DNA of 64,000 bases, taken from assembly GCF_057098645.1 (NCBI RefSeq), contig NZ_CM169472.1; one strand, given 5' to 3'. Every line of letters starts with the position of its first letter. Position 1 is the first letter of the stretch. Below, piece after piece: positions 1,201 through 55,173 of the stretch. The notes beneath the pieces are model-generated. The model made no database searches, was not told the DNA's origin, and saw only the letters and a program-made list of their open reading frames with translations. The position numbers were made by a program, and so were the translations under genes.

Positions 1201-1225
1201 TCGTTCTGTAATATTTGATTGTCTG

Positions 1226-1257
1226 TGCCGGATGCGGCGTGAATGCCTTATCCGGCC
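1226..1257. repeat. REP (repetitive extragenic palindromic) element
   Basis: gccggatgcggcgtgaatgccttatccggcc: imperfect palindrome of the enterobacterial REP family immediately after alr. Confidence 0.6.
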
Positions 1258-1452
1258 AATAAAATCCTACCAATTCAATAAGTTGATATTCTTTCATGCT
1301 CTTATAAAGGTCGTACCTCTGGCGGATGTACGTTTGTCATGAGTCTCACTCTGTTGCTAATTGCCGTTCGCCCCTGAACATCCACTCGATCTTCGCCTTC
1401 TTCCGGTTTATTGTGTTTTAACCACCTGCCCGTAAACCTGGAGAACCATCGC

Positions 1453-11822: not shown

Positions 11823-12287
11823 ATGGAAAAGAAATTACCCCGCATTAAAGCGCTGCTAACCCCCGGCGAAGTGGCGAAACGCAGCGGTGTGGCGGTATCG
11901 GCGCTGCATTTCTATGAAAGCAAAGGGTTGATTACCAGTATCCGTAACAGCGGCAATCAGCGGCGATATAAACGTGATGTGTTGCGATATGTCGCAATTA
12001 TCAAAATTGCTCAGCGTATTGGCATTCCGCTGGCGACCATTGGTGAAGCGTTTGGCGTGTTGCCCGAAGGGCATACATTAAGCGCCAAAGAGTGGAAGCA
12101 GCTTTCTTCGCAATGGCGAGAAGAATTAGATCGGCGCATTCATACCTTAGTGGCGCTGCGTGACGAACTGGACGGATGTATTGGTTGTGGCTGCCTTTCG
12201 CGCAGTGATTGCCCGTTGCGTAACCCGGGCGACCGCTTAGGAGAAGAAGGTACCGGCGCACGCTTGCTGGAAGATGAACAAAACTAA
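11823..12287 (+). CDS. soxR: Redox-sensing MerR-family regulator with [2Fe-2S] cluster
   Basis: 154-aa ORF; MerR HTH ([26 protein letters not shown]) and C-terminal cysteine cluster [12 protein letters not shown]. Confidence 0.95.
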
Positions 12288-12316
12288 AGCGCCACAAGGG
12301 CGCTTTAGTTTGTTTT
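12286..12316. terminator. Rho-independent (bidirectional) terminator after soxR
   Basis: aaagcgcc-acaa-gggcgcttt stem-loop followed by agtttgtttt; A-rich on the other flank. Confidence 0.65.
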
Positions 12317-12430
12317 CCGGTCTTTGTCTTTCTCTCTATCCCGCTGGTACACAGGAGGGTTTCCCCCGACGTCAACACACCTCATTCGAGCACGTGGTGG
12401 AGGTTCCGGTTGGTGTTGATGCTTTAATTG
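12290..12430 (-). ncRNA. ryjA: Candidate small RNA in the soxR-ghxP spacer (position of K-12 ryjA); boundaries approximate
   Basis: K-12 carries sRNA RyjA in this intergenic region, antisense to soxR direction; the shared hairpin at 12286-12316 could serve as its terminator. Not verified by alignment. Confidence 0.25.
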
Positions 12431-28834: not shown

Positions 28835-30148
28835 ATGAAAAATATAAAATTCAGCCTGGCCTGGCAGATTCTGTTTGCTATGGTGCTGGGCATTCTCCTG
28901 GGAAGCTACCTGCACTACCATAGCGACAGCCGCGACTGGCTGGTCGTCAATTTGCTCTCTCCGGCGGGTGATATCTTCATCCATCTGATCAAAATGATTG
29001 TTGTGCCGATTGTGATCTCCACGCTGGTGGTGGGTATCGCGGGTGTTGGTGATGCCAAACAGCTCGGGCGTATTGGCGCGAAAACCATTATCTACTTCGA
29101 GGTGATCACCACCGTCGCCATCATTTTGGGGATCACTCTGGCGAACGTCTTCCAGCCCGGTGCCGGGGTGGATATGTCGCAGTTGGCGACCGTCGATATC
29201 TCGAAATATCAGAGCACTACGGAAGCGGTACAAAGCAGTTCCCACGGCATTATGGGCACGATTTTGTCGCTGGTGCCGACGAACATTGTGGCGTCGATGG
29301 CGAAAGGCGAAATGCTGCCGATCATCTTCTTCTCGGTGCTGTTTGGTCTGGGGCTTTCCTCCCTGCCCGCGACGCATCGTGAACCGCTGGTGACCGTGTT
29401 CCGCTCCATCTCTGAAACCATGTTTAAAGTGACTCACATGGTGATGCGTTATGCGCCGGTGGGTGTGTTTGCGCTGATTGCGGTGACGGTGGCTAACTTT
29501 GGTTTCTCTTCTCTGTGGCCACTGGCGAAACTGGTGCTGCTGGTGCATTTCGCCATTCTGTTCTTCGCGCTGGTAGTGCTGGGAATTGTGGCGCGCCTGT
29601 GCGGGTTAAGCGTCTGGATCCTGATTCGTATTCTGAAAGATGAGCTGATTCTAGCGTACTCCACTGCCAGCTCTGAAAGCGTACTGCCGCGAATTATTGA
29701 GAAGATGGAAGCCTACGGAGCACCGGCGTCGATCACCAGCTTCGTGGTGCCGACCGGTTACTCTTTTAACCTTGATGGTTCGACGCTGTATCAAAGTATT
29801 GCCGCTATTTTCATCGCTCAACTGTATGGCATTGACCTGTCCATCTGGCAGGAAATCATTCTGGTGCTGACGCTGATGGTGACCTCGAAAGGGATTGCTG
29901 GCGTGCCGGGCGTGTCGTTTGTGGTGTTGCTGGCAACGCTGGGTAGCGTAGGTATTCCGCTGGAAGGTCTGGCGTTTATTGCCGGTGTTGACCGTATCCT
30001 CGATATGGCGCGTACTGCGCTGAACGTGGTGGGTAATGCGCTGGCGGTGCTGGTGATTGCCAAGTGGGAACACAAATTTGACCGTAAGAAAGCGCTGGCT
30101 TATGAGCGTGAAGTGCTGGGCAAATTTGATAAAACTGCGGATCAGTAA
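28835..30148 (+). CDS. gltP: Glutamate/aspartate:proton symporter (DAACS family)
   Basis: 437-aa membrane ORF matching GltP as recalled. Confidence 0.9.
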   Translation: MKNIKFSLAWQILFAMVLGILLGSYLHYHSDSRDWLVVNLLSPAGDIFIHLIKMIVVPIVISTLVVGIAGVGDAKQLGRIGAKTIIYFEVITTVAIILGITLANVFQPGAGVDMSQLATVDISKYQSTTEAVQSSSHGIMGTILSLVPTNIVASMAKGEMLPIIFFSVLFGLGLSSLPATHREPLVTVFRSISETMFKVTHMVMRYAPVGVFALIAVTVANFGFSSLWPLAKLVLLVHFAILFFALVVLGIVARLCGLSVWILIRILKDELILAYSTASSESVLPRIIEKMEAYGAPASITSFVVPTGYSFNLDGSTLYQSIAAIFIAQLYGIDLSIWQEIILVLTLMVTSKGIAGVPGVSFVVLLATLGSVGIPLEGLAFIAGVDRILDMARTALNVVGNALAVLVIAKWEHKFDRKKALAYEREVLGKFDKTADQ

Positions 30149-30185
30149 TTGAAGATTGCCGGGGTTATCCCCCGGCAATGTGTGG

Positions 30186-30335
30186 ATGCCTGATGCGACG
30201 CTGGTGCGTCTTATCAGGCCTACGTCAGACAGCGCAATAGCCTGATTTAGCGTGATTTTGTAGGTCGGATAAGGCGTTTACGCCGCATCCGACATCAACG
30301 CCTGATGCGACGCTTAACGCGTCTTATCGGGCCTA
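30186..30335. repeat. REP/BIME cluster downstream of gltP
   Basis: Three or four REP palindromes (gcctgatgcgacgctggtgcgtcttatcaggcctac; gtcggataaggcgtttacgccgcatccgac; gcctgatgcgacgcttaacgcgtcttatcgggcc). Confidence 0.7.
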
Positions 30336-30337
30336 TC

Positions 30338-31027
30338 TTAACCGTTGGTTAATTTTTCAAACTCTTCACACCCGGTATCAAACCCTTCCATACAGCTCAG
30401 GTTCAACCAGTGCAGCGCCTTTTGCTTGTTCTTCTCGATAAAACCTTCTTCACCGTTTAAGAACATCATTCCCGCCCAGTACTCGGAATAACCGGTTCGG
30501 GAAATTGCAGAGCTGCGTTTGAAATACCAGGTTGCCTTGTCATCGTCGGCCTTAATGCCCACGCCGTTGGCGTAAATCAAACCAAGCAGCATTTGGGCAT
30601 CGACGGCAGAGTCGTTCTCCAGATCTTCCGAGGCGTTTTCTAACAGCGAAATCGCCTTTGGATAATCCGGTTTACCCGCTTGAGTATTTACCAGAATATG
30701 CGCCAGCGTTACTTCACCTTCTTTACTGCCCGCTTGCGCCGCTTTCTCTGCAAGAACTTTTGCTTGTGGATAGTCCAGACTGACCGGATTGGTGATTTTG
30801 ATCTGCGCCAACAGCGCGCAGGCATCAGCATCACCGCTGTCGGCGGCTTTCTGTGCCCAATATTCGGCTTTGCTCAAATCGCCGGAGCTAAACCAGCTGT
30901 CGGCAAGAAAATATTGTGCGCGTCGGTCCCCGGCCTCTGCTGCCTTTAAATACTGGCTGCCAGGCTCGGAGTCGTTCGCGTGGGCAAAGAATGTCAAAAA
31001 CAACATCAATGCGATAATTTTTTTCAT
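30338..31027 (-). CDS. yjcO: Sel1-repeat periplasmic protein
   Basis: 229 aa, signal peptide MKKIIALMLFLTFFAHA, repeated Sel1/TPR-like units. Confidence 0.8.
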   Translation of the reverse strand: MKKIIALMLFLTFFAHANDSEPGSQYLKAAEAGDRRAQYFLADSWFSSGDLSKAEYWAQKAADSGDADACALLAQIKITNPVSLDYPQAKVLAEKAAQAGSKEGEVTLAHILVNTQAGKPDYPKAISLLENASEDLENDSAVDAQMLLGLIYANGVGIKADDDKATWYFKRSSAISRTGYSEYWAGMMFLNGEEGFIEKNKQKALHWLNLSCMEGFDTGCEEFEKLTNG

Positions 31028-31120: not shown

Positions 31121-33268
31121 TTACGCCAGTGCCGCTTCGCGCAGGCGAGTTTTCAACTTGTTGTACTCGTCAATCACGTACTGCTCGGCGGCGCGCTGAT
31201 CGGCGATCGGCTCGACGCGCACGGCGCAGTATTTGTATTCCGGCGTTTTCGTAATCGGGCTTAAGTTTTCGGTAACCAGCTCGTTACAGGCACCAATCCA
31301 CCACTGGTAGGTCATATAAATCGCCCCTTTGTTCGGACGATCGCTGACCTGCGCACGGGTGATAATTTTGCCTTTACGCGAGTGCACCCAAACCAATGCC
31401 TCATCTTCAATACCCAGACGTTTGGCGTCTTCGGTATTGATTTGTGCGTAGCCAGGTTCATCAGCCAGCGCCGCCAGTGCCGCACAGTTACCGGTCATCG
31501 AACGGCAAGAGTAGTGACCAACTTCACGCACCGTTGACAGTACCATCGGGTACTCGTCGGTGAGTTTGTCGATTGGCGCTACCCAGTCGCAGGTGAAGAA
31601 CTGCGCCAGACCGTTTGGGGTATCAAACTTCTCTTTAAACAGATAAGAAGTCCCCTGATCGGCATCTGAAGTATCGCGGCAAGGCCACTGAATGAAGCCC
31701 AGTTCGCCCATTTTCTCGTAAGTCGCACCGTAGAAATCCGGGCACAGATGACGCAACTCATCCCAGATCTCCTGGGTGTTGTTGTAGTGCATCGGATAAC
31801 CCATACGGGTGGCGATTTCACTGATGATTTGCCAGTCCGTTTTCAGATCCCATTTCGGTTCAACCGCCTTGAAGAAACGCTGGAAGCCACGGTCAGCCGC
31901 AGTAAACACGCCTTCATGCTCGCCCCACGACGTTGACGGTAAAATAACATCCGCCGCCGACGCGGTTTTGGTCATAAAGATGTCCTGAACGATAACCAGT
32001 TCCAGATCTTCAAAGGCTTTACGTACTGCCGACAGCTCCGCGTCAGTTTGTAGCGGATCTTCGCCCATAATGTACGCGGCACGCACTTCGCCATGCGCTG
32101 CGCGGTGCGGCAGCTCGCTGATGCGATAGCCGGTATGCGCTGGCAGGCTTTCCACGCCCCAGGCTTTGGCGAATTTCTCGCGGTTAGCCGGATCTTTCAC
32201 ATACTGGTATCCCGGATACGTATCCGGCAGCGCGCCCATATCGCAGGCACCCTGAACGTTGTTCTGACCACGAACCGGGTTAACACCCGCATGTGGCTTA
32301 CCGAGGTTACCGGTCAGCATCGCGAGGCTGGTCAGAGAACGCACGGTTTCCACGCCCTGGTAGAACTGGGTTACACCCATGCCCCACAGGATGGCGGCGC
32401 TTTTCGCCTGGGCATACATCCGTGCCGCCTGACGAATCTCACTGGCGCTGACGCCGGTGATATCTTCAACCGACTCCGGCGTGTAGCCTTCAACGATTTT
32501 ACGATACTCTTCAAAGCCTTCTGTACGGGAAGCGACGAATGCTTTGTCGTACAGATTTTCTTCAATAATGACATGGCCCATCGCATTCAACAGCGCGATG
32601 TTCGAGCCGTTTTTCAGTGCAATGTGCATGTCAGCAATGCGCGCGGTTTCAATTTTGCGCGGATCGCAGACGATAATTTTCGCCCCGTTACGTTTAGCGT
32701 TAATTACGTGATTCGCCACGATTGGGTGGGAATCCGCCGGGTTGTACCCGAAAACGAACACTAAATCGGTATTATCAATTTCGTTAATAGCATTGCTCAT
32801 TGCGCCATTACCGACCGATTGGTGCAGACCTGCAACCGATGGGCCGTGTCAGACACGAGCGCAGCAGTCAACGTTATTGGTACCAATAACGGCGCGCGCA
32901 AATTTTTGCATTACATAGTTGGTTTCGTTACCCGTACCACGCGAGGAGCCGGTCGTCTGGATGGCATCCGGACCGTACTTCTCTTTGATGGCGCTCAGGC
33001 GCTCGGCAACGTAATTCAGTGCCTCATCCCAGGAAACAGGTTCGAGTTTGCCGCCACGCTGGCGACGGATCATGGGGGTTTTCAGGCGCGGGGTCAGGAT
33101 CTGGGTATCGTTAATGAAATCCCAGCCATAATAACCCTTCAGACACAGGGTACCCTGGTTGGTTTTCCCCTGCGCTGCCTCCGCCCGGACGATTTTGCCG
33201 TTATCGACGACCAGGTTGATTTTGCAACCTGATGCGCAATAGGGGCAAACCGTGACGACTTTTTTCAT
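31121..33268 (-). CDS. fdhF: Formate dehydrogenase H (selenocysteine, molybdopterin, 4Fe-4S)
   Basis: Two collinear same-frame ORF-track entries (32849-33268 and 31121-32800) separated by an in-frame TGA at 32849-32851 plus 16 codons; total 715 codons. N-terminal CPYCASGC Fe-S motif; ...VDCCARV-U-HGPSV... context. Confidence 0.9.
32800..32851 (-). other. Selenocysteine UGA codon (32849-32851) with the region expected to hold the bacterial SECIS stem-loop
   Basis: In-frame TGA inside fdhF; bacterial SECIS lies immediately 3' of the UGA on the mRNA. Stem-loop not folded by hand. Confidence 0.55.
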
Positions 33269-40789: not shown

Positions 40790-41497
40790 ATGAAACCCGT
40801 CGTGCTGGTGGTGGATGATGACACGGCTATCTGCGCACTGTTGCAGGACGTGTTAAGTGAACATGTCTTTACGGTTTCAGTCTGCCATACCGGACAGGAG
40901 GCCATATTGCGTATTGAGGGCGATCCTGACATTGCGCTGGTGGTGCTGGATATGATGCTACCCGATACCAACGGCCTGAGGGTATTGCAGCAAATCCAGA
41001 AACTGCGTCCGACATTGCCGGTGGTGATGTTGACCGGCATGGGCAGTGAGTCTGATGTGGTGGTCGGGCTGGAAATGGGCGCGGATGATTACATCTGCAA
41101 ACCGTTCACCCCGCGGGTGGTGGTCGCACGACTGAAAGCGGTGTTGCGACGGGTTGGTGCGCTGGCGGTTAATGACGAGAAAAGCGCCGGGCTGTCATTC
41201 AATGGCTGGTATCTCGATACCATGCGCTGCCAGTTGCACAATCCGCTTCAGCAACATGTCGAGTTAACTCAGGGCGAATATGGCTTGTTACTGGCACTGG
41301 CGCAAAACGCGCGTCGGGTATTGAGCCGCGAGCAGTTGCTGGCGTTCACCCACAGCGACAGCGTGGAGGTGTTTGATCGCACCATCGACGTATTAATCAT
41401 GCGCTTACGACGCAAAATCGAACTCAACCCGCATCAGCCGATGTTGATTAAAACTCTGCGCGGTCTGGGGTATGTCTTCGCTGCCGACGTGCATTAA
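40790..41497 (+). CDS. OmpR/PhoB-family response regulator (receiver plus winged-helix DNA-binding domain)
   Basis: MKPVVLVVDDD..., phospho-acceptor Asp in VVLDMMLPD, conserved Lys in YICKPF, C-terminal LIKTLRGLGYVF winged helix. Start trimmed to the ATG preceded by GGAG. Confidence 0.85.
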   Translation: MKPVVLVVDDDTAICALLQDVLSEHVFTVSVCHTGQEAILRIEGDPDIALVVLDMMLPDTNGLRVLQQIQKLRPTLPVVMLTGMGSESDVVVGLEMGADDYICKPFTPRVVVARLKAVLRRVGALAVNDEKSAGLSFNGWYLDTMRCQLHNPLQQHVELTQGEYGLLLALAQNARRVLSREQLLAFTHSDSVEVFDRTIDVLIMRLRRKIELNPHQPMLIKTLRGLGYVFAADVH

Positions 41498-42495
41498 TCC
41501 GACATTTCTGTTTGCAGCTCTTCCAGCGTTTTCGCCCCGTCGATGGCATTGGCGCATAACAGGCTTGCCCGCGCGCAGGCGTGTGCCAGTTTGATGCTCT
41601 CGGTAAGCGTCCAGCGTTCATGGCAGCCATATAAAAATCCGGCACAAAATGCATCGCCCGCGCCGACGCTGCCGATAATTTCCCGTTGTTCTAACTTTTG
41701 CGAAGGGATCCACACGCTGCCCTGTTCTGGGGTCTCTCCCCACGCCCCTTCCGGGCAGTGGATCACCACCCGCTGGCGCACGCCCGCATCTAACAGTTCA
41801 CGCGCGGCGGCAGCAATATGCGCGATATGCGGTTCGCCGTTGGGTAACCGAATTTCCAGCCCGCTAAACTCCCCGGCCTCCAGTTCGTTAATTACCAGAT
41901 AATCCAGATGGCGCAACGCGGGCAGCACCAGCGGCTGATAACGCGGATCGCCCTTACGGGAGACCAGGTCGAGTGAGGTTTCAAAGCCAGTATCACGCAT
42001 TTGCGCCAGCAGGCGTGCGCTACGGGTGCCGTAAACATCGTCCGGCATATCCAGGCTGTCGAGCAACAGTAAATAGCCGAGATGGAAAATCTTCATGGTG
42101 TTATCGAGCTGATCGAACGCCGGAAGATCCAAAAGTCTGTTTGCACCCGGCGAATGGAAAAACGTCCGCTGCCCGCTTGGGTCTGTCATCACCTGCGACA
42201 TCGACGTCGGGGCAAAGGTAGTGCGCTGCACATGCTGACGATTGACGTGATATTGCTCAAGCATCGCCATGATGTAATCGCCGTCGCTGTCCTGACCGAT
42301 TAGCCCAACCGCCTGTAACGGCAGCCCGGTGCGCATTTTCGCCAGCGTCAGCAGGACGTTAAGCGGCGCACCGCCGGTGGAGCGTTCGCTGTGGGTGATC
42401 TCCGCCAGCCAGCCGCGCTCTGGCCACTGGATAATCTGATGGACGTGGTCAACCAACATATTGCCTGCGGCGATAATCCCTTTACGCTCCATCAT
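41494..42495 (-). CDS. PfkB-family carbohydrate kinase
   Basis: 333 aa; ribokinase-fold signature near the C-terminus (GSVGAGDAFCAGFLYG) and N-terminal GG dipeptide region. Confidence 0.8.
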   Translation of the reverse strand: MMERKGIIAAGNMLVDHVHQIIQWPERGWLAEITHSERSTGGAPLNVLLTLAKMRTGLPLQAVGLIGQDSDGDYIMAMLEQYHVNRQHVQRTTFAPTSMSQVMTDPSGQRTFFHSPGANRLLDLPAFDQLDNTMKIFHLGYLLLLDSLDMPDDVYGTRSARLLAQMRDTGFETSLDLVSRKGDPRYQPLVLPALRHLDYLVINELEAGEFSGLEIRLPNGEPHIAHIAAAARELLDAGVRQRVVIHCPEGAWGETPEQGSVWIPSQKLEQREIIGSVGAGDAFCAGFLYGCHERWTLTESIKLAHACARASLLCANAIDGAKTLEELQTEMSD

Positions 42496-43352
42496 GCCTG
42501 CCCCGCACTGCCAAAAATACGCATCTGTTGTGCAACCGTATCGCTGATGGCGGCTTCCACTGCCAGCAGTAACTCGGCAAACTCGTCATACATCGGCTGA
42601 CGGTGCGCCATTCGGGCCTCAACGGCAGCCAGCGCCGCTTGCGACATGCCAGTGTAGAAATTGATTTTGTGGATACCCAGTTCGATGGCGCGGCGGAAAT
42701 CGGCATCGCTAATCCCTGAGCCGCCGTGTAATACCAGCGGGATAGCAGCCTGCTGGCGGATAGCGTCGAGGCGCGGGAAATCGAGTTTCGGTTCGCCGCG
42801 ATATTTGCCGTGTGCATTGCCAATCGCCACGGCCAACGCGTCAATGCCGGTACGGTCGACAAAATCACGCGCCAGTTGCGGATCGGTAAACAGGGATTCA
42901 TCGGCATGACCATAGAGCGCACCGCCTTCGTCGCTACCCACCGCGCCCAGTTCAGCTTCTACCGATACGCCAACGGCATGGCACATTTTCACCACTTCCC
43001 GCGTCTGGCGGACATTTTCTTCATACCCCAGCGTGGAGCCATCAAACATTACCGAGCTGAATCCCAGCCGCAACGCTTGCACCACCGATTCAAAATGCAG
43101 TCCGTGATCGAGATTTAACACCACCGGAATGGCATGACGCGCCGCTTCAAATTTCACTGTCTCGACCAGGGAATCCAGCGAGATATATTTAAAATGTACT
43201 TCGGCAATGTTGATAATAAAGGGCGAACGTTCTTGTCTGGCAGCAGCAAACAAGGCGCGTAAAAAGTGCGAGTCCAGCACATTAAACGCACCTAACGAAT
43301 AGTGATGTTCGCGGGCATGTGCCAGCCCTTCAGCGAGACAAATCAATGGCAT
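42492..43352 (-). CDS. Class II (metal-dependent) ketose-phosphate aldolase, FbaA/GatY/KbaY family
   Basis: 286 aa; N-terminal MPLI...LAHAREHHYSLGAFNV, LNLDHG and LHGGSG motifs typical of class II TIM-barrel aldolases. Confidence 0.8.
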   Translation of the reverse strand: MPLICLAEGLAHAREHHYSLGAFNVLDSHFLRALFAAARQERSPFIINIAEVHFKYISLDSLVETVKFEAARHAIPVVLNLDHGLHFESVVQALRLGFSSVMFDGSTLGYEENVRQTREVVKMCHAVGVSVEAELGAVGSDEGGALYGHADESLFTDPQLARDFVDRTGIDALAVAIGNAHGKYRGEPKLDFPRLDAIRQQAAIPLVLHGGSGISDADFRRAIELGIHKINFYTGMSQAALAAVEARMAHRQPMYDEFAELLLAVEAAISDTVAQQMRIFGSAGQA

Positions 43353-43366
43353 AACGTTATCCTTAT

Positions 43367-44050
43367 TCAGCGGAACTGGCGGTATTCGTTACACAATACC
43401 AACTGTGCAGGTTCGTCTTCGTCAATCAGGTTGTAGCGGTCCAGTGGCTGTAAAAAGTGGTTATCGTGGTCGTCGTCATTGACAGAAGAGACTTCGCCAA
43501 CCAGAACATCGCCAAAGCCGGTTTCCGCCCAAAAGCTGTGATACAGGCCGGGCGGCAGGCAGATACTTTCGCCGGGAGACAGGCGCAACTGAGTGCCTGC
43601 AGTATGTTTCTGGCGGCAGCCGTCTATCACCACCGTAATGTCACTATCAGCCGTTTGCTCGTTACTATCGGCATTCCACAGTTCAACAATTAAATTACCG
43701 CCGCCGCGATTGATAATGTCCTCACGCTTACGCCAGTGAAAATGCATTGGCGTGACCTGCGCATCGCGCACATGCATGATCTTCTCGGCGTAACATTTCA
43801 CATACGGCATTCCTTTTGCTGAGCCGTTACGTAGGGTAAACAGCGTCAGCCCGTGTGCTGCAAAGTTGTTGCGACCAAAAGCGGTAACATCCCAGCCGAG
43901 TTTAAGATCAAAAACCTCCTCCCACGCGGCGGTGTCGAGCTGCTGCCATTGAGCAGGCGAGAAACTGGCAAAGGGCGGCAGATGTACGTCATGTTGCGAA
44001 AAGAATTGCCGTGTATGGCCGAGAATGTCGTTTATAGCGGAGCGTTTCAT
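43367..44050 (-). CDS. Cupin-fold sugar isomerase, D-lyxose/D-mannose isomerase-like
   Basis: 227 aa; cupin metal-binding region (TPMHFHWRKREDIINRGGG ... PGLYHSFW); resembles the D-lyxose isomerase family as I recall it from a pathogenic E. coli enzyme. Confidence 0.65.
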   Translation of the reverse strand: MKRSAINDILGHTRQFFSQHDVHLPPFASFSPAQWQQLDTAAWEEVFDLKLGWDVTAFGRNNFAAHGLTLFTLRNGSAKGMPYVKCYAEKIMHVRDAQVTPMHFHWRKREDIINRGGGNLIVELWNADSNEQTADSDITVVIDGCRQKHTAGTQLRLSPGESICLPPGLYHSFWAETGFGDVLVGEVSSVNDDDHDNHFLQPLDRYNLIDEDEPAQLVLCNEYRQFR

Positions 44051-44104
44051 CGAAAGCGTTCTCCTTAGCGGTGACCGGGCAGCTGCGCCGCCCGGCGCGT
44101 GGAC

Positions 44105-45046
44105 TTATTTCACCGTCCAGCCTTTGTAATTGCCGACGTTGTTTTTATCGATCATCGTCACCGGGATCAGCACCGGCTCTTTCGGCGCAGGTTTGCCCTG
44201 CAAAATGTCGTAGCCAATTTCCACCGCTTTCGCTGCCATCACCTGGGGATCTTGCGCCGGAGTAGCGACAAACAACGAGTTCTCACGCTTGAGCGCCTCT
44301 TCGGCGTCCGGGCTTCCGTCCACACCGACAATAAAGAACTCGTTACGTTGCGCCTGTTTTGCTGCCAGATCGGCACCGATTGCGGTGGGATCGTTAATCG
44401 CAAATACGCCGTCGATCTTCGGATTTGCCGCCAGCAGTCCCGTCATTACCTCCAGCCCGCCTTCACGACTGCCTTTCGCGTTCTGGTTGTCAGAGAGCAC
44501 TTTGATGTCAGGATGGCGTTTAAATTCAGTCTGGCATCCTTCGACGCGGTTTTGCACGGCGGATACCGGCGGGCCGTTGATGATCACCACATTGCCTTTG
44601 CCTTTCAGGCGATCGGTGATGTATTTACAGGCCATTTCGCCCGCCTGGGTGTTATCGGAGGTGATGGTGGCATCAGCACCTTCTGCCGCTACGTCAACCG
44701 CGACGACTACGATCCCGGCATCTTTCGCCCGTTTCACCGCCGGGCCGATCCCTTTTGAATCGGCAGCGTTGAGGATAATCATATCGACGTTAGCGGCGAT
44801 AAAGTTGTCTATCTGCGACACCTGCTGACCCAGATCGTAGCCGCTGGAAACCAGCGTCACTTTGACGTTATCGCCTGCCAGTTTGCGTGCTTCCAGCTCC
44901 GCGCCTTTGGTGATCTGCACGAAGAACGGGTTCGCCAGATCGCCCACCGTTACGCCTATCGATTTCAGTTCTTTCGCTTGGGCGAACGGTGCTGCGGCCA
45001 GCAGCGCGCCTGCACAGAGCGCGGTCACTAAGGGCTTCAATCTCAT
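44105..45046 (-). CDS. Periplasmic sugar-binding protein of an ABC transporter (RbsB/AlsB-like)
   Basis: 313 aa, signal peptide ending AQA, type I periplasmic binding fold (GVTVGDLANPFF..., GIVVVAVD). Confidence 0.85.
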   Translation of the reverse strand: MRLKPLVTALCAGALLAAAPFAQAKELKSIGVTVGDLANPFFVQITKGAELEARKLAGDNVKVTLVSSGYDLGQQVSQIDNFIAANVDMIILNAADSKGIGPAVKRAKDAGIVVVAVDVAAEGADATITSDNTQAGEMACKYITDRLKGKGNVVIINGPPVSAVQNRVEGCQTEFKRHPDIKVLSDNQNAKGSREGGLEVMTGLLAANPKIDGVFAINDPTAIGADLAAKQAQRNEFFIVGVDGSPDAEEALKRENSLFVATPAQDPQVMAAKAVEIGYDILQGKPAPKEPVLIPVTMIDKNNVGNYKGWTVK

Positions 45047-45064
45047 GCTGTATTCCTCATGTGT

Positions 45065-46039
45065 TTATGCACTTTGATGGTGTCGGGTACGGTATTTGTC
45101 GATCAGCACCGCAATGATGATCACCGCCCCTTTGATCACCAGTTGCCAGAAGTAAGAGACGCCCATTAAGGTCATGCCATTGTTGAGCGTGGCGATAATT
45201 AGCGCGCCGACCAGCGTGCCGGTGATGGTGCCGATGCCGCCGACAAAACTGGTGCCGCCGAGGATCACCGCTGCAATGGCATCCAGTTCGTAACCCATGC
45301 CTAAGTTGCCGTTGGCGCTGTACAGCCGTGAGGCGCTCATAATCCCGCCAAGCCCAGAAAGCAGGCCGCTCATGCCATAAACAAACAGCAGCACCAGCCA
45401 GACCTTAATGCCGGTAAGACGCGCCGCCTGCATATTGCCGCCGACGGCGTAGATATGAACGCCAAGCGTGGTGCGGCGTAGAATAAACCAGCACACCACG
45501 ATCACCGCCAGCGCAATCACCACCAGCCATGGGACCGGCCCGAGATAGTTGTTGCCTATCCACTCGAAATTAATGTTGGAGTTGATAACCGTGGTGCCGT
45601 CCGCCAGCAGATACGCCGCCCCGCGCAGCGCCGTATAGGTGCCAAGCGTAACGATAAACGGTGGCAATCCGGCAAAGGCCACCAGCGCGCCGTTGAACAG
45701 CCCCAGCAGCAGGCCGAGCATCAGCGCTGCCGGGATCGACAGCATGGCGAACTCAGGGCTAAGGGAGACGACCATCGCCGCCACCGCTGTGGTGCCGAGG
45801 ATCGAACCCACGGAAAGATCGATCCCGCCGGTCAAAATGATGAAGGTCATCCCCGCGGCCAGAACAATGTTGATCGATGCCTGGCGGGTAATATTCAGCA
45901 GGTTGCTTTCGGTAAAAAAGTTTGGCGCGATAAAGCCAAATACCGCCACGATCAGAATCAAAATGGGCAAGATGCCGACCGTTTGCATCAGATCGCTCAT
46001 CAGCATTTTTTTGGCAGAGGTTTTTGCAGAGGTCGTCAT
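45065..46039 (-). CDS. ABC sugar transporter permease (RbsC-like)
   Basis: 324-aa polytopic membrane protein; 4-bp overlap with the upstream ATPase gene. Confidence 0.85.
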
Positions 46040-47556
46040 GAGGTTACCGCCTGGGAATGGGCGTCGTTGACGCCAGTCGCTAAGGTCATAATGTTTTCCT
46101 GGGTGATGTTTTTGCCGTTTAACTCACCGGCAATGCTGCCTTCGCGCATCACATAGACGCGATCGCTCATTCCCACTATCTCCGGCAGTTCGCTGGAGAT
46201 CATCAGGATCGCCACGCCCTTGCGCGCCATCTCGTTCATGATCCGGTAGATCTCACTTTTGGCGCCAACGTCCACGCCGCGGGTGGGTTCATCGAGCAGT
46301 AAAATGCGCGGGCCAATCGCCACCCAGCGGGAGATCAACAGTTTTTGCTGATTGCCGCCGGAAAGCCCGCCCGCGCGTACCTGGGCATGAGGCACGCGAA
46401 TGTTGAGCAACTTGATGGCGTCATCGGAAATGGTTTGCGCTTTTTTGCGATTGAGCATTCCCCAGCTGGCATCGCGCTCCAGGGTTGCCATGGTGATGTT
46501 TTCGGCTGCTGCCATTTCAAGGAATAAGCCTTGTTCTTTGCGGTTTTCGGTGAGAAAACCAATGCCAAGATCGATGGCTTCGCGCGGGGAGTGGATCACC
46601 ACCGGTTCACCATCGACTTCAATCATTCCGCCTGTCGCTTTCCGCACGCCGAAGATCAACTGCGCCAGTTCGGAACGTCCGGCTCCTACCAGCCCGGCGA
46701 GGCCGACAATTTCGCCGGAACGCACCAGCAGGCTACTCGGCTGGACTTTGCCACCGTCGGTCAGGTGGTGAACATTCAGGCGGGCTTTGCCGAGCGGGAT
46801 ATCGCGCTCTTTATTGAACAGATCGCTCAGTGGCCTGCCGACCATCATCCGCACCAGCTCCCCGGCATTGAGGTTATCGCGGGTCAGGCTGCCAACGTAT
46901 TGCCCGTCGCGCAGCACGCTGACGCGATCGGAAAGCTCATACACTTCCGCCATACGGTGGCTGATGTAGATAATCGCCATCCCTTCATCGCGCAGCCGCA
47001 TAATCAGTTCAAACAGACGGTGAGTTTCACGGGAGGAGAGGGCAGCGGTGGGTTCGTCCATCACCAGAATGCGGCTGTTGCGATGCAGCGCGCGGGCGAT
47101 TTCGACCTGCTGTTGCTCGGCAATGGTCAGCATCATGACTTTATCGCTGGCGTTAAACTGCGCGCCGAGGCGGTCGATCACTCTTTGCGCCTGCACCAGC
47201 ATCTCTTTACGCTGCACCAGCCCGCCGTGGGAAAGCTCGCTACCGAGAAAAATATTTTCTGCCACCGTCAAATTGGGTGCCAGCTGCATCTCCTGATAAA
47301 TCAGCGTAATACCGGCACTTAAGGCATCTTTTGGCGTGCGAATGTGAAAGGGCTTGCCGTCTATGAGGATCTCGCCGCTGGTGGCGGTATACGCCCCCGC
47401 CAGCACCTTCATCAGCGTGCTTTTTCCCGCGCCGTTTTCCCCCATCAGGGCATGGATCTCGCCAGGGTAGACCGTCAAATCCACCCCTTTGAGCGCATAA
47501 AATTTGCCGAAGGCTTTGGCAATATTGCGCATCTCCAGAACTGGCCTGCTGTTCAT
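46036..47556 (-). CDS. ABC sugar transporter ATPase, tandem nucleotide-binding domains (RbsA-like)
   Basis: Two Walker A sites ([20 protein letters not shown]) and two signature motifs (LSSRE-like, LSGGNQQK); start trimmed to [16 protein letters not shown] with GGAG RBS. Confidence 0.85.
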
Positions 47557-47669
47557 GGTGGACTCCTGCGAGGTTGTCGATATCAGCACTCCATCACAGG
47601 AAAGTAAATGCAAAATGTCAGAAGCCGTTCATATTTGTCATATTGCGATTTTTCTTCACGGAGCGTGAT

Positions 47670-49934
47670 ATGGCGCACCCCGGACGTCACTTTTTTGCCA
47701 GCGCGCGCGGGCGATTGCTGCTTTTGAATTTGCTGGTGGTGGCGGTGACGTTGATGGTCAGCGGCGTGGCGGTAATGGGCTTTCGTCATGCCAGCCAGAT
47801 GCAGGAGCTGGTGCAGCAGCAAACGGTGGATGATATGACCGGCAGCCTGAATCTGGCGCGCGACACGGCAAACGTGGCAACGGCGGCGGTGCGATTGTCG
47901 CAGGTGGTGGGAGCGCTGGAATATAAAGGCGAAGCCGAGCGGTTGCAGGAGACACAGCGGGCATTAAAAAGCTCGCTTGCACAACTGGCGAACGCGCCTT
48001 TAGCGCAGCAGGAAGCCGGGCTGGTGACGCGCATCATCACGCGTAGCAACGAACTGCAAACCAGCGTCGGCGGTATGCTGGAGCGCGGGCAAAGGCGGCA
48101 TCTGGAGCGCAACGCGCTGTTAAGTTCGCTGTATCAAAACTTAAGTTATCTGCGGCATCTGCAAAAAGTCACTCACGCGCAAGATGATATTTTGCTTAAC
48201 GAGATGAACCGACTAATTGTTGCCGCTATTGCCACCCCCGCGCCGCAGGCGATTATTCATCAACTGGTCGGGGTAATGTCTGCGTTGCCGACCCACAGCG
48301 ATACGCCATTGGTTAATACGTTACTCAATGATTTCAATGATGAAATGCGTAAACTCGCGCCGCTTTCTGCCGCTCTGGAGCAAAGCGATCTGGCAATCAG
48401 CTGGTATATGTTTCACATCAAAGCGCTGGTGGCGATCCTCAATGGCGACATCAACCGTTACGCCGAACAGGTGGCGACGCTCTCCGGTCAGCGTGTGGCG
48501 CAAAGTTACCAGGATTTGCGCTCCGGCGAGAGGGTGATCATGATTTTCGCCCTGTTAGCGGTGGTGATCACCGCGTTTGCCGGCTGGTATATCTATCGCA
48601 ACCTCGGCACTAACCTGACGGCGATTTCCCGCGCCATGAGCCGCCTGGCGCACGGCGAAGCGGACGTCACTTTTCCGGCGTTACAGCGGCGTGATGAGTT
48701 GGGTGAACTGGCGCGCGCCTTTAACGTTTTTGCCCGCAATACCGAGTCACTCGAACGAACCTCACGGCTGCTAAAAGAGAAGACCACGCAGATGGAGATT
48801 GCCCAAACTGAGCGGCAGGGGTTGGAAGAGGCGCTATTACACAGCCAGAAACTGAAAGCGGTCGGGCAACTGACGGGCGGGCTGGCCCATGATTTTAATA
48901 ATCTGCTGGCGGTGATTATTGGCAGCCTGGAGCTGGTGAATCCGGACTCGCCAGACGCGCCGCGAATACAGCGGGCGCTGCAAGCTGCCGAACGTGGGGC
49001 GCTACTGACACAACGACTGCTGGCGTTTTCCCGCAAGCAGTCCTTACATCCGCAAGCCGTTGAACTGAAAACATTGCTGGAAGAGTTAAGCGAATTAATG
49101 CGCCACTCCTTACCGGCAACGCTGGCGCTGGAGATTGAAGCGCAGTCTCCGGCGTGGCCCGCGTGGATTGACATCAGCCAACTGGAAAATGCCATCATCA
49201 ACCTGGTGATGAACGCCCGTGACGCGATGGAAGGGCAGACGGGAATCATCAAAATTCGTACCTGGAATCAGCGCGTTACTCGCAGCAGTGGGCAGCGTCA
49301 GGACATGGTGGCACTGGAGGTCATCGATCATGGCAGCGGTATGTCGCAGGCGGTGAAAAGCCAGGTATTTGAGCCATTCTTTACCACCAAACAGACGGGC
49401 AGCGGCAGCGGGCTGGGGTTGTCGATGGTCTATGGTTTTGTGCGCCAGTCCGGTGGGCGCGTTGAAATTGAAAGCGCGCCGGGGCAGGGGACAACGGTCA
49501 GATTACAGCTTCCCCGCGCGCTGACGGCGGCGAAAAACCTATCGCCAGCGGCAGTAGAACAGGCTTCTGTCAGCGGCGATAAACTGGTGTTAGTGCTGGA
49601 AGATGAAGCCGCGGTGCGCCAGACCATCTGCGAACAGTTGCACCTGCTGGGCTATTTGACGCTGGAAGCAAGCAGCGGCGAACAGGCGCTGGATCTGCTG
49701 GCGGCATCAGCAGAAATCGATATTTTTATCAGCGATTTAATGCTCCCCGGCGGCATGAGCGGCGCAGAAGTGGTCAATGCGGCCCGCAAACTTTACCCGC
49801 ACCTGACGCTGCTACTCATCAGCGGTCAGGATTTACGCCCCAGCCATAACCCCGCGCTGCCAGACGTGGCGCTGTTGCGCAAACCCTTTACCCGTGCGCA
49901 GTTGGCGCAGGCGCTGGGGCAAATTGAGGGATGA
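47670..49934 (+). CDS. Hybrid sensor histidine kinase (periplasmic sensor, HAMP, HisKA, HATPase, C-terminal receiver)
   Basis: Start trimmed to ATG 47670 (MAHPGRHFF...); two TM segments flanking a roughly 270-aa helical periplasmic domain; H-box GGLAHDFNNLL; ATP lid DHGSGM, GSGLGLS; receiver with Asp in IFISDLMLPG. No HPt domain. Confidence 0.85.
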   Translation: MAHPGRHFFASARGRLLLLNLLVVAVTLMVSGVAVMGFRHASQMQELVQQQTVDDMTGSLNLARDTANVATAAVRLSQVVGALEYKGEAERLQETQRALKSSLAQLANAPLAQQEAGLVTRIITRSNELQTSVGGMLERGQRRHLERNALLSSLYQNLSYLRHLQKVTHAQDDILLNEMNRLIVAAIATPAPQAIIHQLVGVMSALPTHSDTPLVNTLLNDFNDEMRKLAPLSAALEQSDLAISWYMFHIKALVAILNGDINRYAEQVATLSGQRVAQSYQDLRSGERVIMIFALLAVVITAFAGWYIYRNLGTNLTAISRAMSRLAHGEADVTFPALQRRDELGELARAFNVFARNTESLERTSRLLKEKTTQMEIAQTERQGLEEALLHSQKLKAVGQLTGGLAHDFNNLLAVIIGSLELVNPDSPDAPRIQRALQAAERGALLTQRLLAFSRKQSLHPQAVELKTLLEELSELMRHSLPATLALEIEAQSPAWPAWIDISQLENAIINLVMNARDAMEGQTGIIKIRTWNQRVTRSSGQRQDMVALEVIDHGSGMSQAVKSQVFEPFFTTKQTGSGSGLGLSMVYGFVRQSGGRVEIESAPGQGTTVRLQLPRALTAAKNLSPAAVEQASVSGDKLVLVLEDEAAVRQTICEQLHLLGYLTLEASSGEQALDLLAASAEIDIFISDLMLPGGMSGAEVVNAARKLYPHLTLLLISGQDLRPSHNPALPDVALLRKPFTRAQLAQALGQIEG

Positions 49935-50346
49935 TTTTCAGAATTTATCAAGAGGCCTGAAGCAAATGTGCTGCTATTGTGAGCAATTCTGTTCTGAATG
50001 GGATATAAAAGGAATTATGCCAGTACTGACAAGAGGCGATTCACATATGATCGTGATGCCAACCACCTATAGCGATTTCAGTGTTTGTATTAGACACTGA
50101 ACAAGGGGCATTTTGGCCTTATGATGGCACGAAAGTGATCTACGATGGCGGTTGCATTCCGGAAGAGCGTATCTGGAGTATTTCACCGGATCAAAAATGT
50201 CATGGCATTGTGCTGGTGGCGGAAAATAAACAGCGAGCTAACCAGCTAATGGAAGAGTCTGCGCCTTACCGAATTTGAGATTACTCCGCTACTCCGGTCA
50301 TTCACACTCAACTAACGTTAAGCCAGTCCATCGCAGAGACTGGCTT

Positions 50347-51947: not shown

Positions 51948-52491
51948 GGTGTTTCTCCTTCTGATGAATCAGCGTCAGCAGCGTGTCGACCGACTGGCGC
52001 AGGCTACCGTCATTATTGAGCGTATGGCAATCCTGTGGAGTATAGCGGGCAGCGCGCGCCAGCCGGGCGTTAATTTCACTGGCGTTTTCGCGTCCACGGT
52101 TTTCCAGGCGCTGGCGCAGGATCTCTGGCGACACCTGTAAGCAGATGGGCAGCAGCGCCGATGCATAGCGCGCCCGCGCCTGCGGCAGATGGGCGCGTGA
52201 GCCGTTGACCAGCACGTCGAATCCGGCGTGCAGCCAGAGGTCAATCTCGACGCCGACGCCATAATACAGACCGTTGGCGTGCCAGCTTAAGGCCAGCAGA
52301 TTTTGCCCCGCGCGGGTAAAAAACTCCTGCTCGCTCAGGGCGATATGGTTTTCGCTTCCAGCGCTGGCATCGCGCGTGATGTAGCGATGCGCCACCAGTA
52401 GCTGCGCCTGTTCCCGCAGGCGGAGTTCCGCCAGCAGGCTGTCTTTCCCGGAGCCGGACGGCCCCATTAACCAAATCAGTTTTCCCGTCAT
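51934..52491 (-). CDS. phnN: Ribose 1,5-bisphosphate phosphokinase
   Basis: 185 aa, P-loop [10 protein letters not shown]. Confidence 0.9.
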
Positions 52492-53627
52492 CAGAACACC
52501 CTTTTACCCTGACGCCAGACGTGGTCGATATGAATGTGATTGCCCTTGCGATGCGCCAGCACCAGGTCCGCGCGATTGCCCTCGCCAATCACCCCGCGAT
52601 CCTGGAGATTAAGCGCTTGCGCCGGATTTTTAGTCACCAGCCTCACCGCCTGCGGCAGCGTAAAGCGGTTGCTCTGGTCATCGGCCACGCGGAACGCCGC
52701 ATCCAGCAGGCTGGCGGGGTAGTAGTCGGAAGAGAGGATATCCAGCAGGCCAAGCTGCGCCAGTTCACTGGCCGCCACGTTGCCGGAGTGCGAACCGCCG
52801 CGCACGATATTCGGCGCGCCCATCAGCACGTTCATGCCATGCTTGCGCGAGGCTTGTGCCGCTTCGAACGTGGTGGGAAATTCGGCGATCACGCTGCCAA
52901 GCTGGTGGGATTCGGCAACGTGGGCGTGCGTGGCGTCATCGTGGCTGGCGAGGGCAATTTGTCTTGCGCGGCACAGGGCGGCGATAGTTTCGCGATTCGG
53001 CTGCGACCAGCGTGCGGCGAGCGCCAGTTGCTCTTCTTCGTACTGCTGCATCTGCGCATCGGTGAGCGAGTATTTGCCCTGATAATACTCGCGATACTTC
53101 TCGCGGTTGGCGAACTGGCGCTGGCCCGGCGAGTGATCCATCAGCGACACCAGCGTCACCGGCTCGCGCTGCACCAGTTTTTCAAACAGCGGCAGCGTAG
53201 TGTGATGCGGCAGTTCGCAGCGCAGATGCAGGCGGTGCTCGGCGCGGTTGACGCCGCGTTTCTGCGTCTCTTCGATGGCGTTGATCATCTTCTCCAGATT
53301 TTCCAGCCGATCGCCGCCGTCGCGCACGTCGCCAATTGCTACGGCATCCAGTACGGTGGTGATGCCGCTCGCCACCATCAGCGCGTCGTGGCTGCTCATC
53401 GCCGAGTGGGCGGGCCAGTCCACTTTCGGGCGCGGGGTGAAGAATTTATCCAGGTTATCGGTATGCAGCTCAATCAGCCCCGGCAGCAGCCAGCCGCCTT
53501 CGCCGTCCATCGCCTCCGGCAGGCGGCTCTGGCTTTCGGCAAAGGCGCGGATTTCGCCGTCCTGCACCTCCAGCGAACCGTGTACCACCTCGTTTTCCAG
53601 CACCAGTTTGACGTTATTGATAATCAT
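52491..53627 (-). CDS. phnM: RPnTP diphosphatase (amidohydrolase fold)
   Basis: 378 aa; metal-binding LHTDNLDK region. Confidence 0.9.
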
Positions 53628-54304
53628 GCAGAGGCTCCCATTGGGTGCAGGCGGTCGGCGACGTCATTGCGTACGGCTTCGTCATGGAAGATGCCGACGA
53701 TGGCCGCGCCGCGGGCTTTGGCTTCGCGGATCAGTTCGACTACGGCGGCGCTGTTTTTGGCGTCCAGCGAGGCGGTAGGTTCGTCGAGCAGCAGAATCGG
53801 GTAGTCGACGATAAAGCCGCGGGCGATGTTGACGCGCTGCTGTTCGCCGCCGGAGAAGGTCGATGGCGCCAGATGCCACAGGCGTTCCGGCACGTTCAGG
53901 CGGGTGAGCAGACGCGCGGCTTTAGCGGCGCAGGCTTCACGCGGAACGCCGGTATCGAGCAGCGGCTGCATCACCACTTCCAGCGCCGAAATACGCGGGA
54001 TGACGCGCAGAAACTGGCTCACCCAGCCAACGGTGGTTTTGCGGATTTCCACCACTTTGCGCGCTGGCGCGGTGACCAGATCGACCCATTCGTCACCGTG
54101 TTTGATCTGGATTTGCCCTTCGTCGGGCAGATAGTTGGCGTACAGCGAGCGTAGCAGGGTTGATTTTCCGCTGCCGGAATGGCCGTGGAGCACCACGCAT
54201 TCGCCCGCGTTGACGGTGAGCGAGGCGCGGTTGAGGACGGGCAGGCGCACGCCGTTTTGCTGGTGCAGGATGAAGGTTTTACTGACGTTTTGTACGTTAA
54301 TCAT
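53624..54304 (-). CDS. phnL: C-P lyase system ATP-binding protein PhnL
   Basis: 226 aa from [11 protein letters not shown]; Walker [11 protein letters not shown]; ORF-track entry has an upstream extension. Confidence 0.9.
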
Positions 54305-54323
54305 TTTTCGCCTCGTGGTTCGG

Positions 54324-54408
<85 letters not shown>

Positions 54409-54414
54409 ACCGGC

Positions 54415-55173
54415 TCAATTCTGCAAAACCGATGACACCAGCAGTTGGGTATACGGATGGTGCGGGTCGTCGAGCACGCGGTCGGTTAACCCACTCTCCA
54501 CCACCTTCCCCTGCTTCATCACCAGCAAACGGTCCGCCAGCAGGCGGGCGACGCCCAGATCATGGGTGACAATCACCACCGCCAGATTCAGCTCCACCAC
54601 CAGACCGCGCAGCAGGTCGAGCAGGCGCGCCTGCACCGACACATCCAGCCCGCCGGTTGGTTCGTCCATAAATACCAGCTTCGGATGCGTCACCAGGTTG
54701 CGGGCAATCTGCAAACGTTGCTGCATGCCGCCGGAAAAGGTGGTCGGCAGGTCGTCGATACGGTTGGCGGGAATTTCCACCTCTTCCAGCCACTTCTGCG
54801 CGGTGGCGCGAATATCGCCGTAATGACGCGCCCCGGTCGCCATCAGCCGCTCGCCGATATTGCCCCCTGCCGAGACCTGGCGGCGCAGGCCGTCGAGCGG
54901 ATGCTGATGCACTACGCCCCATTCGGTGCGCAGCAGGCGACGGCGGTCGGCCTCGCTCATGCCATAGAGGGAACGGTTTTCATAGTGAATCTCCCCCTGC
55001 TGCGGCGTCAGACGCGCGGAAATTGATTTCAGCAGCGTGGTCTTCCCGGAGCCGGACTCCCCGACAATGCCCAGCACTTCCCCCGGCCATAAATCAAAAG
55101 AGACATCGCTAAAGCCTTTGCCCGGCGCGTAAAGGTGGGTCAGGTTATTGACCGAAAGTAACGGTTGATTCAT
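54415..55173 (-). CDS. phnK: C-P lyase system ATP-binding protein PhnK
   Basis: 252 aa from [11 protein letters not shown]; Walker [11 protein letters not shown]. Confidence 0.9.

Follow-up and report, generated by a model that had tools for sequence, protein, structure and literature searches.

The window analysed here, meaning the whole stretch of 64,000 nucleotides, is a piece of the E. coli chromosome that extends from dnaB to crfC, with strains of serotype O145:H28 as its closest relatives. A 2.5-kb query around the focal site showed 100% identity with many O145:H28 genomes, and the window as a whole aligns with the O145 strain RM9872 at 99.9% identity over its full length, except for a 414-bp indel in phnM. 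Gene names were taken from the RefSeq annotation of RM9872, moved over by alignment and checked against the lists of open reading frames (ORFs); the gene labels given in the initial annotation proved correct. In the window, phnM is intact (ORF 52491–53627, minus strand, 378 aa) and the region concerned by the indel lies at 52766–53167; the RM9872 copy carries a 414-bp in-frame deletion, with a 12-bp direct repeat at its bounds. From about 40800 to 50000, where K-12 has its allose region (alsRBACEK, rpiB), the window carries another island for sugar use, with genes for a response regulator, a carbohydrate kinase, a ketose-bisphosphate aldolase, a D-lyxose/D-mannose isomerase, an ABC transporter and a hybrid sensor kinase. 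Rfam models additionally placed the sRNA SraL/RyjA at 12280–12420 (minus strand), adjoining soxR, and a selenocysteine insertion element at 32802–32856 (minus strand), within fdhF.

REP-type palindromes were found at six sites, which together hold 12 palindromic units (PUs) plus one half-unit at 19745–19757. The intergenic fraction of the window is 10.4%, and all six sites fall inside it: five at junctions of same-strand (tandem) genes, one at a convergent junction and none at the eight divergent ones. Such a bias of REPs to the 3′ side of genes has been described before and the placement observed here fits it. The focal element, between the convergent genes gltP and yjcO, is a BIME of three units in the order Z2, linker, Y, S linker, Z2. 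Its features are as follows, bit scores being those of a covariance model described below.

30146–30148: gltP stop codon
30155–30179, plus strand: perfect 10-bp G+C-rich hairpin (ATTGCCGGGG ttatc CCCCGGCAAT), not a REP, 6 nt past the gltP stop codon and without a U tract
30186–30223, plus strand: unit 1, class Z2, CTAC at 30220–30223; 60.6 bits, 0 mismatches in the paired-arm scan
30224–30259: tail-to-tail linker of 36 nt between CTAC and GTAG, part of the 113-bp unit that is in tandem in K-12
30260–30295, minus strand: unit 2, a Y variant, GTAG at 30260–30263 (as read on the plus strand); 59.0 bits
30294–30299: S linker ATCAAC, 6 nt, head-to-head between units 2 and 3
30298–30336, plus strand: unit 3, class Z2, degenerate tag CTAT; 52.1 bits
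30338–30340, minus strand: yjcO stop codon, 5 nt from the stem of unit 3

The outer arms of unit 2 (GTCGGAT...ATCCGAC) hold a compensated T-A pair. The hairpin at 30155–30179 forms in the RNA fold and has the same stem with another loop in K-12; it is a neighbour of the BIME and lies outside the REP family. The whole gltP-yjcO spacer measures 189 bp in the window vs 641 bp in K-12.

The other five sites carry the following elements.

1225–1260, plus strand: lone Y unit in the alr 3′ region, tag CAAT, 26 nt past the alr stop codon; 50.9 bits, identical in K-12
19655–19691 (Y) and 19695–19732 (Z2): head-to-head pair at acs-yjcH, minus-strand genes; 56.5 and 60.6 bits
19745–19757: half-unit remnant at acs-yjcH
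54324–54361 (Z2-like) and 54375–54410 (Y), minus strand: tail-to-tail pair at phnK-phnL; 60.7 and 59.6 bits
59647–59682 (Y) and 59696–59733 (Z2-like), minus strand: head-to-head pair at phnD-phnE; 58.3 and 56.7 bits
62203–62240 (Z2) and 62250–62285 (Y), minus strand: pair at yjdM-yjdN, tags CGCC and TTAC; 53.6 and 56.4 bits

As proposed earlier, the two phn sites lie between adjacent genes of the same strand (phnK/phnL and phnD/phnE), and our gene map adds that the acs/yjcH site does so too. The phn operon is one transcript, and acs-yjcH-actP are co-transcribed. At phnK-phnL, 6 nt separate the phnK UGA from the Y stem, and the phnL ATG (54304) lies 22 nt past the pair; at phnD-phnE, the distance from the phnD UAA is 3 nt to GTAG and 7 nt to the stem; the yjdM-yjdN pair begins 14 nt after the stop codon. 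This last site is the two-unit allele of a much-studied K-12 locus, REP325/naRNA4, to which it is orthologous and which serves several papers as their model REP. The linker between the stems at phnD-phnE is 17 nt long (59681–59697, ATCAACGCCTGCACATT) and begins like an S linker followed by the first Z2 bases (GCCTG), then stops; it may have been left behind when units recombined long ago. REP repeats are a known annotation trap in which mechanical ORF calls run through the repeats, and here the mechanical ORFs for phnL (53624–54418) and phnE (58852–59694), both on the minus strand, run upstream through the BIMEs. The phnE gene itself is intact in the window and a pseudogene in K-12, where the annotated phnE1 pseudogene starts within the Y unit. 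A literature search on REP together with the phn operon returned nothing relevant.

The units were called with a paired-arm scan (GCCKGATGCGRCG, a loop of 0–14 nt, then CGYCTTATCMGGC, with at most 3 mismatches allowed), which returned 12 units in the window vs none in 30 dinucleotide-preserving shuffles, each of the 12 matches carrying no more than 2 mismatches in total. Single arms are far less specific (31 matches vs 5–11 expected by chance), thus the signal is carried by the pairing of the arms. A covariance model built from the alignment of the window's own 12 units was run on the whole window with filters off and up to E = 10. It scored the 12 units at 50.9–60.7 bits and its next best match, inside fdhF, at 15.8 bits, leaving a gap of 35 bits; being circular for its own 12 units, this model shows only that the window holds no further sequence like them. 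Independent support came from the curated Rfam model RF02564 (naRNA4), which was built on K-12 REP325 and has a gathering threshold of 59.5 bits. Four sites scored over that threshold.

19658–19729: acs-yjcH, 76.9 bits
30263–30333: gltP-yjcO, 72.2 bits
59650–59730: phnD-phnE, 69.1 bits
62206–62282, minus strand: yjdM-yjdN, full model length, 99.9 bits

At phnK-phnL, where the units stand tail-to-tail and not head-to-head, RF02564 reached 42.7 bits and stayed under the threshold, and the lone unit after alr had no match at the gathering threshold. The initial annotation had announced at least seven sites while itself listing six. The palindromes that it quoted are indeed present in all six of its coordinate ranges, and the formal scans confirm them as REPs (12 units, six sites); no seventh site appeared when the arm scan was relaxed to 4 mismatches, the covariance model to E = 10 and the search to a loose regular expression of the outer 7-mers, so the count is to be lowered to six. 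Within fdhF, a GCCGGAT...ATCCGGC pair at 32187–32228 was rejected as a chance look-alike, its interior being unrelated to REP (15.8 bits).

The 12 aligned units share a mean column identity of 81%. All 144 of the 144 stem cells across the units are paired, and in five of the 12 stem pairs both partners have changed (G-C to U-A, A-U to G-C and C-G to U-A); as a control, sliding the partner columns by 1–3 positions lowered pairing to 26–42%. The internal mismatch of GC opposite TT is invariant, and the GATGCG and CTTATC blocks are unchanged in 12 of 12 units. The GTAG/CTAC tag at the foot of the stem is exact in eight of the 12, the degenerate tags being CAAT (alr), CTAT (last focal unit) and CGCC and TTAC (yjdM-yjdN). 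Both the stem mismatch and GTAG are needed together for binding and cleavage by TnpA-REP (Ton-Hoang et al., PMC3333891). These imperfect palindromes of 30–40 nt thus combine everything by which the REP family is recognised, namely a stem with a mismatch, a tag, an extragenic position on the 3′ side of genes and dispersed copies, and they are E. coli REP family units of classes Y and Z2. The REP/BIME identity put forward earlier is upheld by the arms, the conserved GC/TT mismatch, the paired stems, the placement on the extragenic 3′ side and the Rfam matches at four sites.

An altogether different identity, in which the palindromes would be ordinary Rho-independent terminators or chance palindromes, can point to their being G+C-rich hairpins on the 3′ side of genes. 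However, no U tract follows the REP units at any site (terminator scan of 30000–30500, direct reading at the other sites), which excludes simple intrinsic termination. The 81% column identity and the absence of matches in shuffled sequence speak against it as well, as does the dispersal of the repeat, a phnK-phnL query having a median of 25 matching places per genome. This identity is already refuted by these observations and can be given practically no credence.

Definitions of Y, Z1, Z2, BIME-1 and BIME-2, together with the variation of BIME number between strains, are those of PMC3333891. Inverted pairs of the BIME-2 type occur at five of the six sites, the exception being the lone Y unit after alr. 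The BIME-2 layout of Y-S-Z2 with a 6-nt or 7-nt linker is seen at 30260–30336 and 19655–19732; pairs are present also at the phn sites and at yjdM-yjdN, and the units of the phn sites are hybrid variants in which GTCGGAT accompanies a Z2 inner stem. As to BIME-1, the covariance model and a regular expression found no Z1 unit in the window, and no repeated L motif was seen. The linker of the focal BIME holds only a one-mismatch match to the IHF consensus (30235–30247), and such matches occur about once per kb in the window. An exact consensus (TATCAACTTATTG) lies at 1276–1288 on the minus strand, 16 nt from the lone Y unit, one of seven exact matches in the whole window. It was considered as a BIME-1 L motif and rejected, the alr flank being single-copy per E. 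coli genome.

These observations bear on the possibility that the repeats act mainly at the level of DNA, organising the chromosome as sites where gyrase binds and cleaves (BIME-2), as HU/naRNA4 nucleoid contacts or as IHF sites. BIME-2 elements bind gyrase strongly and the BIME-1 linker binds IHF (PMC2817692), condensation by HU together with naRNA4 was proposed in an mBio 2015 paper, and four sites match the naRNA4 model. Moreover, the focal site lies between convergent genes, where positive supercoils would be expected to build up under the twin-domain model. Yet the window offers neither Z1 units nor a repeated L motif, its sole IHF-like match inside a BIME has a mismatch, and the flank of the lone alr unit is single-copy. 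In K-12, nucleoid volume was reported to be unaffected by REP325, HU formed no stable ternary complex with cruciform DNA and naRNA4, and Hi-C gave no REP-REP contacts (preprint 10.64898/2026.03.23.713779), findings that leave the nucleoid model weaker. A predominantly DNA-level role is, in our judgement, quite improbable.

Folding of the RNA in the transcribed direction gave −23 to −68 kcal/mol over the six sites, with z-scores of −3.7 to −7.9. The acs-yjcH fold reaches −68.0 kcal/mol (z −7.9), that of phnK-phnL −60.7 kcal/mol (z −6.5), starting directly after the phnK UGA, and that of phnD-phnE −50.5 kcal/mol (z −4.3). For phnK-phnL and phnD-phnE alike, the fold of lowest energy joins the two inverted units in a single long hairpin instead of giving each its own, so that the real structure of the RNA there is uncertain.

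The distance from stop codon to stem is 5–7 nt for three genes (phnK 6 nt, phnD 7 nt, yjcO 5 nt) and 14–39 nt at the other three sites. According to Liang, Rudd and Deutscher (2015, in the account given in PMC12306157), translation falls when a REP lies within 15 nt of a stop codon, and a hairpin so placed might stall the terminating ribosome, leading to mRNA cleavage and less PhnK, PhnD and YjcO. Three distances in the window fall well inside 15 nt, and the phnK-phnL fold even begins right after the UGA. The rule was nonetheless derived from genes other than phnK, phnD and yjcO, the remaining three sites lie at or past its limit, and a repressive element suits PhnD poorly, a binding protein being expected in excess. 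Ribosome stalling could also coexist with the protective and terminating role proposed below, and as a rival to it we consider it rather unlikely.

In the orthologous region of K-12 MG1655, REPs were found at the same six sites and nowhere else. The RefSeq record of K-12 lists no repeat features in this region. In the order alr, acs-yjcH, gltP-yjcO, phnK-phnL, phnD-phnE and yjdM-yjdN, K-12 has 1, 2, 11, 2, 2 and 12 PUs and the window 1, 2, 3, 2, 2 and 2; the comparison per site thus gives unequal counts at gltP-yjcO and yjdM-yjdN. The yjdM-yjdN spacer is 157 bp in the window vs 657 bp in K-12, and the two units of the window have their counterparts in the outermost two of the K-12 array, with which they share their degenerate tags.

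To place these alleles among other strains, evenly spaced samples were drawn from 5426 complete E. coli genomes. At gltP-yjcO the sample holds several span classes, and in eight genomes, including K-12 and the window, the units number 1 (two strains), 3 (O157:H7 and the window), 5, 7, 11 (K-12) and 13 (ATCC 25922). At yjdM-yjdN the alleles counted have 2 units (O26:H11 and the window), 4 (O157:H7) and 12 (K-12); the query for this site aligns in one piece in 3703 of 5425 genomes, and 35 of 60 evenly spaced rows have the two-unit span of the window, the commonest class, with five further rows showing one extra 100-bp unit. As in BIME-2 arrays, the variation in copy number follows tandem units, of 113 bp at gltP-yjcO and 100 bp at yjdM-yjdN. 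The phn BIMEs are nearly fixed, 5387 of 5426 genomes aligning over at least 80% in one place, with identical spans in most sampled rows and variant alleles in a minority.

The spread and amplification of the repeats have been attributed to the RAYT transposase (TnpA-REP). A rayT gene was counted in 3575 of the 5426 E. coli genomes and is missing from about a third, a count that matches the two-thirds reported earlier. In O145 RM9872, the nearest relative of the window, the yafL-lfhA locus (L014 1119–1746) carries a hicB-hicA toxin-antitoxin pair in place of rayT, a replacement by hicAB that has been described mainly for B1 strains. A rayT gene flanked by REPs in the same genome, the mark of REP/REPINs mobilised by RAYT, is thus lacking in RM9872, the one genome in which this locus was inspected. 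Since the nearest relative has no rayT, the copies of the window are probably static, and its units are, to judge from that relative, probably not being processed by RAYT at present. Their copy number could change by recombination or slippage between tandem units.

Short alleles were seen in O26:H11 and O104:H4 (two-unit-length spans at yjdM-yjdN) and in O111:H8 (a one-unit-length span at gltP-yjcO), strains which we take to be of the B1 type. Perhaps the number of units in a BIME-2 array is a strain-specific setting of expression, with minimal arrays tracking the loss of RAYT, a speculative idea that we regard as a long shot. If this were so, the expansion of arrays would need RAYT, and the 12-unit REP325 of K-12 would be an unusual and not a typical allele.

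The same survey may be read in a more sceptical way. The repeats could be neutral or selfish relics, non-autonomous and once spread by RAYT, which persist after genes because they are harmless there and have no meaningful effect on their neighbours. Unit number does vary freely among strains (1 to 13 at gltP-yjcO, 2 to 12 at yjdM-yjdN), the tags of edge units have decayed, and the elements persist without the enzyme, as the hicAB pair at the rayT locus of the relative and the absence of rayT from about a third of genomes indicate; REPs also have no general effect on half-life (preprint 10.64898/2026.03.23.713779). On the other hand, mere relics would hardly account for the retention of the phn BIMEs in 5387 of 5426 genomes, mostly at an unchanged span among the rows sampled, nor for a stem pairing kept at 100% through compensated changes, from which the hairpin appears to be constrained. 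In addition, deletion of REP325 changes the mRNA levels of both yjdM and yjdN (preprint 10.64898/2026.03.23.713779). This reading seems to us possible and still on the unlikely side.

The explanation that we favour, with a probability of roughly 85%, is that the palindromes are Y and Z2 REP units arranged mostly as BIME-2 pairs, whose hairpins most likely protect mRNA 3′ ends and bring about partial termination. The identity as REP/BIME-2 is secure, and the function is one that we infer by analogy with other REPs, chiefly REP325. Once transcribed, the units would fold into very stable hairpins that block 3′-to-5′ exonucleases, and the mRNA segment upstream would be protected. The same hairpins would cause partial termination, partly dependent on Rho, and so the gene that lies downstream would be expressed less. 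For the phn genes this would mean an advantage of phnCD over phnE and of the segment from phnF to phnK over that from phnL to phnP; acs would likewise gain relative to yjcH-actP in its own operon; and the gltP-yjcO BIME would define and protect the 3′ ends of both convergent transcripts. The hedged suggestion of the initial annotation, that the phn REPs may affect how stable the mRNA segments are, is in line with reports on other REPs (preprint 10.64898/2026.03.23.713779). In K-12, REP325 stabilises yjdM mRNA and lowers yjdN about 8–10-fold, partly via Rho; one hairpin after another gives transcript ends, which form a ladder, and its effects depend on context (preprint 10.64898/2026.03.23.713779). 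According to the same preprint (10.64898/2026.03.23.713779), there is no general link between terminal REPs and longer half-lives, and the size of the stabilisation varied with expression level, between about 3-fold and about 160-fold. The arrays of the window, with 2–3 units, may act much more weakly than the 12-unit REP325 array.

Everything found in the window is of a known kind and at known sites, and the finding is an ordinary one. REP and BIME elements have been described since the 1980s and the six sites are orthologous to those of K-12, which leaves little weight for discovery. What may be of use lies in the alleles. In the window, as in roughly two-thirds of the genomes sampled, the yjdM-yjdN array is a two-unit or four-unit allele and not the 12-unit one of K-12, and conclusions drawn from K-12 may not carry over to such strains. 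The phn BIMEs, almost fixed and 6–7 nt from the phnK and phnD stop codons, offer handy natural tests of the stabiliser, attenuator and ribosome-stalling models.

Four known systems invite comparison. With REPIN/RAYT systems, the window shares inverted REP doublets, the GTAG/CTAC tag and the stem mismatch needed for TnpA-REP binding; it differs from them in the hicAB pair that occupies the rayT locus of its closest relative and in the four of 12 units without an exact tag. The gltP-yjcO BIME of K-12, which is the source of the TnpA-REP substrate B319 (Ton-Hoang et al. 2012, PMC3333891), occupies the orthologous site between the same flanks, is built of Z2 and Y-variant units with 36-nt and 6-nt linkers, and likewise has its last unit abutting the yjcO stop codon, although it counts 11 units vs three and its Z2 loop sequences differ.

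REP325/naRNA4 (RF02564) is the closest reference for yjdM-yjdN, 62203–62285 being the same locus, with its full-length match to the model on the transcribed strand, and Y-Z2 pairs at three other sites score over the gathering score of its model. The nucleoid role proposed for naRNA4 has become contested (preprint 10.64898/2026.03.23.713779). The K-12 array has 12 units, equivalent to six naRNAs, vs the two units of the window.

Finally, the phn sites may be set beside malE-malF and hisJ-hisQ, where, as Newbury et al. 1987 and Stern et al. 1984 reportedly found, REPs stabilise mRNA within operons. Unlike in those two, the unit at phnD-phnE is only 7 nt from the stop codon of the upstream gene. 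In its gene order, phnD-phnE repeats the classic malE-REP-malF layout, a gene for a periplasmic binding protein being followed in both by a REP element and then by the gene for an ABC transporter permease.
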